The notes below the pieces were generated by a model. That model was not told the DNA's origin and did no database searches. It saw only the letters and a list, made by a program, of their open reading frames with translations. 5,875 nucleotides of DNA, taken from a virus (Duplodnaviria; Heunggongvirae; Uroviricota; Caudoviricetes). The DNA lies in IMG/VR virus record IMGVR_UViG_2529292977_000021; one strand, given 5' to 3'. Positions 1,400 to 2,497 of the stretch are shown here, piece by piece. The translations under genes were made by a program, and so were the position numbers. Positions within the stretch are counted from its first letter, which is position 1; each line of letters starts with the position of its first letter.

Positions 1400-2497
1400 T
1401 CACCCCCTGAATCCCGGCGGAATTTCGGTATCCGGTTCAGAAATATGATTCACACAACGCTGGTTGTTCGTGCCGCTTACCGGGAGCAACCAGGGGTTTT
1501 CAAAATTCCGGTCCGGCCCAAAAAACGTCGTCGCTCGCTGAACAAATTCCGTTCCCGCTTTCCCGGTCGCCGCCAGGTATCTCGCGTAACGCCTCACACC
1601 ATCCAGCATGGTCTCTGGTGGCACCCCCTCGCGCAATCTGGCCTTCCAGGCACTGAAAGCGGATTTCTTCGGGTTTGCCCCAGCACGCAACGGGTATTCC
1701 CGCCAGACCTGTTCGAACACATCCGGATAATCCACTCGTCCCACAGACTGCCCGGTGCTTTCCGGGACTACCCGATCGGCTTCCCGCTGAATGGCGGAAT
1801 CGGCTTCAGGCTGCTGCAGTTGGTGTGATTGCTCCGACCCTGCGGTCATCACCTGCTGCACAGCGCCCGAATCGGCTTCCGGTGTCGTGCCTGCTGGCTG
1901 ACCAGGATTGACGGTCTGAACATCCCCTGCCTGGTTCGTGGTGTTTTTTTTGCCATGAACCATAGTGTTTTTGTCCTGTTCCTGTTCTTTCTCCTGCTCC
2001 TGTTCCTGTTCCTGTTCTTGGCTTCGAAGCCCCTTAAAAGCCCCTTCGAAGCCCCTTACCGAATTTCGGCTATTATTCCGCCTCACATCCAGATGGAAAT
2101 CCGTTTTATATCTGTCGTAAAACACTGACAGAAAAGCGTTTTCAGGTAATGATGCATACTCATTCCTGACACCTGCACAACGGTTATCGCCAGGCTTCAA
2201 CGTTTCCCCAACCTGCCAGGCTGCCATTTCATGGACCCAGACCATCTCTGCATCATGGTCATAGCTACAAAAACCAGCTTCAACAGCCCTTTTAAGCCCC
2301 TTTGAAGCCCCTTCCAGACCAAGCCCGGTTTCATGAGCAAGGTATAAAACTGGCAGGTAATACAAACCCAGCATATTTGCGTGAGGGGATGTCATCAGGT
2401 AAAAAGCAACAACTTGCGCTTCTGCACCCGCCTTTCTAAGTTCTCTCCCCGTTTCTCCCAGCCAGAATCGCGGAGAAACTTTTGCGTAATCACGCAT
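1400..2497 (-). CDS. Phage replication initiation / replisome organizer protein (O-like, YdaU-like), with an EQ-repeat linker
   Basis: Long minus-strand ORF immediately upstream of the dnaC-like gene. Preferred start is ATG at 2497..2495 (MRDYAKVSPRFW...) with GAGGT 4 nt upstream; the ORF track extends to 2608 (402 aa) but that extension has no SD and overlaps a TATAAT/AGGAGG signal on the other strand. Contains a low-complexity QEQEQEQEQEKEQEQ linker. Family assignment is from context and recalled similarity. Confidence 0.8.
   Translation of the reverse strand: MRDYAKVSPRFWLGETGRELRKAGAEAQVVAFYLMTSPHANMLGLYYLPVLYLAHETGLGLEGASKGLKRAVEAGFCSYDHDAEMVWVHEMAAWQVGETLKPGDNRCAGVRNEYASLPENAFLSVFYDRYKTDFHLDVRRNNSRNSVRGFEGAFKGLRSQEQEQEQEQEKEQEQDKNTMVHGKKNTTNQAGDVQTVNPGQPAGTTPEADSGAVQQVMTAGSEQSHQLQQPEADSAIQREADRVVPESTGQSVGRVDYPDVFEQVWREYPLRAGANPKKSAFSAWKARLREGVPPETMLDGVRRYARYLAATGKAGTEFVQRATTFFGPDRNFENPWLLPVSGTNNQRCVNHISEPDTEIPPGFRG
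1975..2016. repeat. Tandem hexanucleotide repeat (CCTGYT)x7 inside the initiator gene, encoding the (EQ)n linker
   Basis: Units read directly: cctgtt cctgtt ctttct cctgct cctgtt cctgtt cctgtt. Unit length 6, so copy-number change is in frame. Confidence 0.9.
2022..2058. repeat. Iteron-like direct repeats, cluster 1: three AAGCCCCTT copies at exact 11-bp spacing (candidate origin iterons inside the initiator gene)
   Basis: AAGCCCCTT at 2027-2035, 2038-2046 and 2049-2057. The 15-mer CTTCGAAGCCCCTTA occurs exactly twice (2022-2036 and 2044-2058). An origin function is inferred by analogy to ori-lambda inside gene O. Confidence 0.5.
2285..2326. repeat. Iteron-like direct repeats, cluster 2: AAGCCCCTT at 2294-2302 and 2305-2313 with degenerate flanking copies
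   Basis: Same 9-mer, same orientation, 11-bp spacing, about 260 bp from cluster 1. Degenerate copies AGCCCTTTT (2285-2293) and AAGCCCGG (2321-2328). Moderately AT-rich DNA lies between the clusters. Confidence 0.45.

Follow-up and report, generated by a model that had tools for sequence, protein, structure and literature searches.

A length-variable hexanucleotide tract beside iterons in a predicted phage initiator gene, a candidate element of a gene-embedded replication origin

Introduction

Origins of replication that lie inside the gene of their own initiator are textbook knowledge for phage lambda. In the iteron plasmids RK2, pPS10 and R6K, the Rep protein binds the iterons together with one strand of the adjacent unwinding element, which consists of AT-rich 13-mers and is located outside the rep gene. 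From Escherichia coli O157:H7, in-frame coding variable-number tandem repeats (VNTRs) are known, including the 6-bp loci of multiple-locus VNTR analysis (MLVA). Here we describe a hexanucleotide repeat tract within a predicted replication initiator gene of a tailed phage (Caudoviricetes). We analysed a stretch of 5,875 nucleotides (IMG/VR record IMGVR_UViG_2529292977_000021; hereafter 'the window', to which all positions refer unless stated otherwise), which agrees letter for letter with a segment of a lambdoid prophage in E. coli O157:H7 str. TW14359 (NC_013008.1).

In lambda, iterons and an AT-rich tract make up the origin, which sits centrally within gene O, so that additional iterons add residues to the O protein (PMC7466680). 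In bacterial oriC, the DnaA-trio follows the pattern (.A.)n, with a central adenine in each triplet, and lies beside the DnaA boxes (PMC8287927), while the single-stranded DNA (ssDNA) element of DnaD (DnaD recognition element, DRE) is T/C-rich and located on the opposite strand (PMC10201434).

The tract described here directly follows a cluster of iterons, and both are found at corresponding places in initiator-like genes from several bacterial phyla. We favour the view that the tract is a conserved DNA element coupled to the iterons and not merely a variable linker. An origin-like cassette of this kind in a very large initiator family is apparently undescribed: no relevant paper turned up in our literature search, either by the iteron or tract sequences or by the locus tags.

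Results

A hexanucleotide tract abuts iterons in the initiator gene

Read in codon register (2020 down to 1973), the tract consists of the units CAAGAA CAGGAA CAGGAA CAGGAG CAGGAG AAAGAA CAGGAA CAGGAC (Table 1). Its sense strand is purine-rich (~0.8) and every triplet has a central A. Tandem Repeats Finder reported positions 1974-2017 with period 6, 7.3 copies, 84% matches and a score of 60. The best period-6 score within the window was 17, whereas 500 dinucleotide shuffles averaged 6.1 and reached at most 11. The in-frame hexanucleotide repeat that a first-pass annotation had noticed in this gene is thus present, on the minus (coding) strand, and scores above all shuffles. The same annotation had counted seven CCTGYT units at 1975-2016, six of which fit; the unit at 1987-1992 reads CTTTCT and encodes an interrupting Lys. 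The peptide it had given for the repeat, QEQEQEQEQEKEQEQ (aa 160-174), is indeed encoded, but by positions 1976-2020, so that the coordinates were out of frame by a few bases.

That the repeat abuts an iteron-like cluster was confirmed as well, since only the CGAAGC junction separates it from the nearest copy. Exact AAGCCCCTT 9-mers start at 2027, 2038 and 2049 (cluster B) and at 2294 and 2305 (cluster A), with a spacing of 11 bp in both clusters. The 11-bp iteron consensus, GAAGSSSCTTC, is a palindrome, CTTCGAAG, spaced by CCC or GGG. The successive copies of cluster B are read in three different frames (as RGF, EGA and KGL), and cluster A sits within the region coding for the N-terminal domain. 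That is, direct repeats (three plus two copies) lie inside the initiator gene at the boundary between its N- and C-terminal domains, as expected of an intragenic origin.

Table 1. Features of the initiator locus in the window
Feature	Position	Strand	Remarks
DnaC-like helicase-loader ATPase gene	647..1393	-	PF01695, 1.4e-18; NF009043, 1.4e-152; DnaC NF005931, 4.6e-88
Initiator / replisome-organizer gene (predicted)	1400..2497	-	365 aa; annotation by the Prokaryotic Genome Annotation Pipeline (PGAP) and homologues begin at MRDY
A-rich stretch	1936..1972	-	directly after the tract; A8 run at 1944-1951; GC 0.375 for 1940-1979
Hexanucleotide tract	1973..2020	-	eight CAR-GAN units with an AAAGAA interruption; encodes QEQEQEQEQEKEQEQD, aa 160-175
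CGAAGC junction	2021..2026	-	Arg-Ser; half-iteron directly before the tract in nearly all family members
Iteron cluster B	2027..2057	-	three sense-strand AAGGGGCTT copies, 11-bp spacing
Iteron cluster A	2294..2313	-	two AAGGGGCTT copies, 11-bp spacing; EGASKGL, nt 185 and 196 of the coding sequence (CDS)

The cassette is conserved across a very large family

A search of 1.84 billion representatives with the N-terminal domain alone returned 4075 clusters at 50% identity (E <= 1e-3). In 105 of the best 150 cluster representatives, a (Q[EDK..])n repeat with n of at least 3 directly follows the motif [EQ][GA][AP]SK[GP]LRS, which is iteron-encoded. Ten of these 150 carry ([GR][ATSP])n with n of at least 4 instead, a few have (KE)n, (TE)n or (GE)n, and most others show degenerate versions. 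Homologues of the N-terminal domain (2060-2497, minus strand) from several phyla share ~45-70% identity; Pfam-A offers no model for this domain, and its NCBI name is only 'DNA-binding protein'.

Scanning one genome per species, we obtained 36 loci from Entero-, Beta- and Gammaproteobacteria, Acidobacteria, Elusimicrobia, Binatia, Pirellulaceae and others. Iterons, NCGAAGC and (CARRAN)4-20 follow one another in this order in 34 of the 37 complete genes, with a median of six units, and the junction reads NCGAAGC in most of these 34 loci. The cassette is constant, while the C-terminal halves of the proteins are unrelated between groups. An exact-pattern scan of IMG/VR for AAGCCCCTTCGAAGC followed by (CARGAR)2.8 retrieved at least 120 contigs. 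Across the family, the neighbouring genes encode DnaC-like loaders, DnaB-like helicases, primase-helicases, SSB and Cro/YdaS-like regulators.

The iterons are conserved as DNA. From E. coli to Binatia, across several phyla, the 9-mer occupies the same two places of the CDS (nt 185/196 and nt ~430-470). The GGG/CCC centre can flip, which turns Gly into Pro and keeps the palindromic arms. Synonymous choice at iteron positions is nearly invariant and unlike that at other conserved positions of the domain: GGG was used in 52 of 58 versus 47 of 188 cases, CTT in 35 of 48 versus 19 of 214 and GCT in 24 of 28 versus 8 of 114, while the Arg codon of the junction was CGA in 20 of 21 sequences versus 2 of 99 where Arg is conserved elsewhere. 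Fisher tests of these contrasts gave p values from 1e-16 to 1e-19, which overstate independence because the sequences are related, although four-fold degenerate sites elsewhere are near saturation. Synonymous codon choice thus shows the iterons to be under constraint at the DNA level.

The tract is kept in other reading frames

For most loci, the tract itself does not allow DNA and peptide conservation to be told apart, since Gln and Glu have only CAR and GAR codons, respectively. This applies to frame 0, read as QE, which accounts for 28 of the 34 genome loci and 47 of the 54 viral ones (82-87%). In six genome or metagenome loci (L036, L037 and L044-L047) and seven IMG/VR loci, CAGGAG/CAGGAA stands one base out of register (frame 1) and is read as Gly-Ala, Gly-Thr or Arg-Thr, with the junction CGAAGC|CAG unchanged. 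These genes are intact (300-335 aa) except for L037 and L121. All their tract codons end in A (GGA, GCA, ACA, AGA, TCA), although the GC content at third codon positions (GC3) of the genes is 0.64-0.90 in five of the six genome or metagenome loci. In the ten frame-1 cluster representatives, {G,R} alternates with {A,T,S}, which is the exact image of {CAG,CAA}{GAG,GAA,GAT}. The third frame occurs in a truncated paralogue (L034), where a tract of 11 units is read as (KN)4(RN)7. In this locus (nt 1-460), cluster A is expanded to six copies, four cluster-B iterons are present, and a stop codon soon after the tract is followed by AT-rich DNA with a TTGACA-like promoter element.

The variants (QK)n, encoded by CAGAAG, and (KE)n, encoded by AAGGAG, reverse or neutralise the charge of the peptide by one purine-to-purine change per unit, which leaves the hexamer purine-rich. 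The longest tract we saw has 20 units, mostly CAGAAG/CAGAAA, and is basic, (QK)n (L026, CDS nt 478-600, a betaproteobacterial-type locus). Finally, where a gene encodes the N-terminal domain only (L048 and the L034 paralogue), the tract is retained at its end and is then followed by AT-rich intergenic DNA. Judged by these comparisons, the non-QE frames, the charge variants and the N-domain-only genes favour a tract element that would act at the DNA level.

Isolates differ by whole 6-nt units

Of 5426 complete E. coli genomes searched with a 141-nt query across the tract, 448 had the locus. The window allele was present in eight of these 448, all O157:H7-type and one a spinach isolate. About 420 genomes (~94%), including O157:H7, O26, O103, O111 and O121, had one unit fewer (135 nt, the length seen in 56 of 56 sampled rows), and at least 13 had two units fewer (129 nt). 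The carriers of this shortest allele were four O157:H7 genomes with identical flanks and nine other strains with one to three single-nucleotide polymorphisms in the flanks; approximately seven further genomes, likewise at <95% identity, do not simply lack two units and stand outside this count. In the alignment, the three alleles (L001, L002 and L003) differed only in their number of CAGGAA copies (2, 1 and 0), that is, in the uninterrupted iteron-proximal run at 2003-2014. Their annotated CDSs of 1098, 1092 and 1086 nt are all in frame.

The earlier suggestion that the linker length varies between isolates without frameshift therefore held, for the uninterrupted run only, and the unit number was not identical in all related prophage copies. 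Short head-to-tail units and length steps that are multiples of the unit, within the uninterrupted run, correspond to a slippage-type coding VNTR. Polymorphism in E. coli is modest, and three alleles with one of them this dominant do not make the tract hypervariable. Allelic diversity was higher in Acinetobacter phages: among 35 phage-type loci of A. baumannii (genes similar to that of YMC/09/02/B1251, flanks at least 95% identical), five, six, seven and eight units occurred in 1, 12, 18 and 4 loci, respectively, with ten tract alleles. A role as phase-variable contingency locus was rejected because the unit is 6 nt long and every allele keeps the frame. Downstream of the tract, we noted a separate 24-nt in-frame indel (EADSAYALK) in the spacer of E. 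coli 03_3503 (L004) and of P0001; the spacer length thus changes by other events too.

The tract opens a variable spacer between exchangeable protein modules

As the first-pass annotation had proposed, the tract lies between the N- and C-terminal parts of the protein, with a conserved N-domain (aa 1 to ~145) before and an exchangeable C-domain (aa ~255-365) after it. In an alignment of 22 homologues, S159, Q160 and Q172 were invariant, while the next ~80 columns were hypervariable in length. The AlphaFold2 model was poor overall, with a mean predicted local distance difference test score (pLDDT) of 56. Its N-domain (aa 10-90) was modelled with moderate confidence and its helical C-domain (aa 256-340) confidently, while the pLDDT was below 50 across aa 91-253, tract included. 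The tract therefore forms the conserved beginning of a spacer that varies in the rest of its length. Foldseek comparison of the model with the Protein Data Bank (PDB) yielded no more than weak winged-helix/MarR matches (best E 0.08), a hint rather than proof that the N-domain has a winged-helix-turn-helix fold.

Homology between the initiator variants of E. coli breaks at the tract. About 1800 E. coli genomes have only the C-terminal half in common with the window, and this homology stops at position 1971, the edge of the tract. Likewise, tblastn matches in phage genomes span either aa 1-159 or aa 175/177-365. The A-rich stretch that follows the tract in the window holds the codon of Met179 (1961-1963), where the exchangeable C-terminal module (TMVHG) begins; this stretch is not conserved across the family. 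In E. coli O145 RM8843-C1 (L005) and UTI89 (L006), the same C-module is joined to an unrelated second N-domain family ('MANAWLRLW', annotated as phage replisome organizer). The latter has its own repeat, (ACAGATAAAGAT)n, at CDS codons ~146-163. One strain has 3.5 copies and the other 2.5, and a short CAAGAAGATCAA remnant comes after the repeat.

The gene and its neighbourhood

The early region of the prophage is Rac-like and comprises, in this order, genes for a cI-like repressor, ydaS-like and ydaT-like proteins, an ECs1072-family protein (on the opposite strand), the initiator and the DnaC-like ATPase. The initiator matched PHROG 1701 ('DnaD-like helicase loader') over its full length (1.9e-150, aa 1-365) and PHROG 3729 ('replication initiation protein') from aa 165 to 365 (1.7e-125); both names are annotations and not demonstrated functions. 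These labels, the position in the module directly upstream of the adjoining loader gene and the internal repeats point to a replication initiator or organizer of the lambdoid module, in agreement with the first-pass annotation. At E <= 0.01, Pfam-A contained no family for the window initiator or ten homologues, save for one C-terminal Phg_2220_C match. An NCBIfam search of the initiator gave no family, its sole match being weak, C-terminal and DnaT-like, and a sequence search against solved structures matched nothing beyond this tail. The last 24 residues (...NHISEPDTEIPPGFRG; aa 342-365, 1400-1474, minus strand) are similar to the C-terminal end of DnaT, a primosomal protein (NF002770 positions 156-179, E 0.0019; PDB 6aep, 2ru8 and 9zbt), and the terminal IPxGFRG is kept in enterobacterial homologues. 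By this resemblance, the tail may be a contact motif for the helicase or its loader.

The initiator reading frame is open further upstream (2498-2608, minus strand), which would add 37 codons and yield 402 aa from the ATG at 2608; PGAP and all homologues place the start at MRDY (2497). The ECs1072-family gene (NF033230, 2.1e-30) occupies 2576-3031 on the plus strand, between the initiator and the ydaT-like gene, and is overlapped almost completely by an open reading frame of 186 aa at 2715-3275 on the minus strand. A toxin-antitoxin pair at 4452-4923 (plus strand), beside the immunity region, consists of a PaaA2-like antitoxin (PF21217, 1e-19) and ParE (PF05016, 1.9e-16).

Discussion

We infer binding of the iterons by the initiator, an origin function of the cassette and a role of the tract as DNA. 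The cassette would comprise two iterons in the region coding for the N-domain, two to five iterons of 11 bp, CGAAGC and (CARGAR)n. It would be the replication origin of the phage and sit where the two domains of the initiator are joined, just as ori-lambda does within gene O, with the hexamer tract in the iteron-adjacent place of the AT-rich region of lambda. As DNA, the tract could serve as a strand-specific entry or binding track, or as a spacer for helicase loading. Once translated, it would form the first part of a disordered spacer between the N-domain and the exchangeable C-domain, where it would be tolerated, and it would gain and lose units most simply by replication slippage. We consider it fairly probable that the slippage-prone tract has both roles, as DNA part of a gene-embedded origin and as translated spacer. 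A more specific form of this idea is unlikely: the (NAR)n tract would be a sequence- and strand-specific ssDNA track next to the double-stranded iterons by which the initiator, or the recruited loader or helicase, opens the duplex and picks the strand for the helicase. It would thus be a phage counterpart of the DnaA-trio or DRE that is encoded within the initiator gene and tolerated whatever the frame.

Several observations weigh against a role of the tract as DNA. Frame 0 dominates, and frame 2 is found only in short or probably defective genes, which implies that the peptide is also under selection. In most loci, selection at the protein level alone would yield the same DNA, because only CAR and GAR are available. 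The frame-1 loci are scattered, and their nearest neighbours are frame-0 loci with 54-72% amino-acid identity and saturated four-fold sites; they could be recent frameshift derivatives that were homogenised by slippage. The tract itself is not AT-rich (GC 0.39-0.67 across the family), its Gln and Glu codons are not enriched for A-ending forms (p 0.57), and in fused genes the next 40 nt are neither richer nor poorer in AT than the gene (mean difference in GC 0.002, p 0.57; 32 loci). An easily melted AT-rich unwinding element as the general role of the tract was rejected because neither the DNA after it nor its codons show AT bias.

The tract might instead be purely a matter of protein, namely a slippage-prone microsatellite that encodes a flexible acidic Gln/Glu spacer and is conserved through selection on this peptide, for example as a tether or acidic tail beside the DNA-binding domain, with the other frames as recent accidents. 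Such an explanation is somewhat doubtful in our view. It would account for the prevalence of frame 0, for a DNA motif that follows from two residues with two codons each, for the missing AT-richness and codon skew, for the location in a region that is modelled with low confidence and probably disordered, and for the E-to-D replacements (GAR to GAY), conservative for the peptide, that are common in enterobacterial homologues. However, it does not lead one to expect intact genes from at least six unrelated lineages that read Gly-Ala or Gly-Thr with 100% A-ending codons despite their GC3 bias, nor (QK)n and (KE)n tracts in which one purine per unit flips or neutralises the charge. Proteins that consist of the N-domain only keep the tract with nothing to link, and the CGAAGC|CAR junction is invariant as DNA in both frames.

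Two further explanations concern recombination and translation. The breaks in homology at the tract, in E. coli genomes and phage matches alike, the unrelated N-domain that shares the C-module in RM8843-C1 and UTI89 and carries its own repeat and remnant, and the wholly different C-terminal halves between taxa beside a constant cassette would all fit a homology patch, in which iteron and hexamer DNA lets recombination swap N-terminal (origin-specificity) and C-terminal (helicase-recruitment) modules between phages. Any conserved sequence would be such a recombination junction, though, and the retention of the motif and its fixed position relative to the iterons are left unexplained; as the main explanation we regard it as improbable, and it is compatible with the dual DNA and spacer role rather than exclusive of it. 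Very improbable, finally, is a function at the level of RNA or translation, with Shine-Dalgarno-like AGGAG/AGGAA sequences that cause ribosome pausing at the domain boundary or an internal start at Met179 and hence a separate C-terminal protein. An AGGA does lie 10 nt upstream of the in-frame ATG at the start of the C-module, and this is kept in both N-domain families of E. coli; yet Met179 is absent from the homologues of Klebsiella, Raoultella and Citrobacter, and (CAGAAG)n and (CAAGAA)n tracts are weakly or not Shine-Dalgarno-like.

What makes the dual role of interest is that a very large initiator family without a Pfam model, spread over phages and prophages of many phyla, carries a different and strongly conserved cassette. 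Should the tract function as DNA, it would represent a new, non-AT-rich kind of origin element, and DNA and protein constraints would overlap in one sequence that is read as QE, GA or RN. If the ssDNA-track idea were true, an origin-opening element that is not AT-rich would be common to thousands of phages across phyla. The cassette may further provide a simple signature for locating origins in prophages, including viable A. baumannii phages and prophages of enterohaemorrhagic E. coli, and the tract is a low-diversity in-frame VNTR that separates some O157:H7 lineages.

With the MLVA VNTRs of O157:H7, the tract shares the hexanucleotide unit, the in-frame length changes and the location in a prophage or accessory gene. 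It is far less variable, with three alleles and one of them in ~94% of the 448 genomes, and a literature search by locus tags and sequence found no paper with this locus and no link to published MLVA schemes. As in the iteron plasmids, a putative winged-helix-type initiator is combined with iterons on one helix face and an adjacent repeat that could be bound as ssDNA; unlike in those plasmids, the tract is not AT-rich and lies inside the initiator gene.

The likeness to DnaA boxes with a DnaA-trio is one of layout only and not of membership: (NAN)n, with n of at least 3, stands beside double-stranded sites of a predicted initiator, beginning 6 nt after the last iteron. As in the DnaD element, the complementary strand of the hexamer tract is T/C-rich. 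By contrast, the repeats are AAGSSSCTT and not DnaA boxes, the triplets are 5'-CAG/GAR versus the consensus 3'-GAT-5', the repeat is hexameric and inside a coding region, and the initiator has no AAA+ domain, whereas it is the AAA+ domain of DnaA that binds the trios.

Compared with ori-lambda, the initiator does not belong to the Phage_rep_O family (no Pfam match), the iterons are 11 bp long, built on the palindrome and arranged in two clusters ~250 bp apart, and the iteron-adjacent tract is a GC-neutral (CARGAR)n rather than an AT-rich unwinding region; the 37%-GC A-rich stretch after it in the window is not conserved. As in ori-lambda and the origins of Stx phages, however, the cassette occupies a central place in the initiator gene, where a putatively origin-binding N-domain meets a putatively partner-binding C-domain. 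Moreover, as in ori-lambda, direct repeats are followed by a special tract, a change in repeat number alters the length of the protein, and the gene of the loader is located directly downstream.

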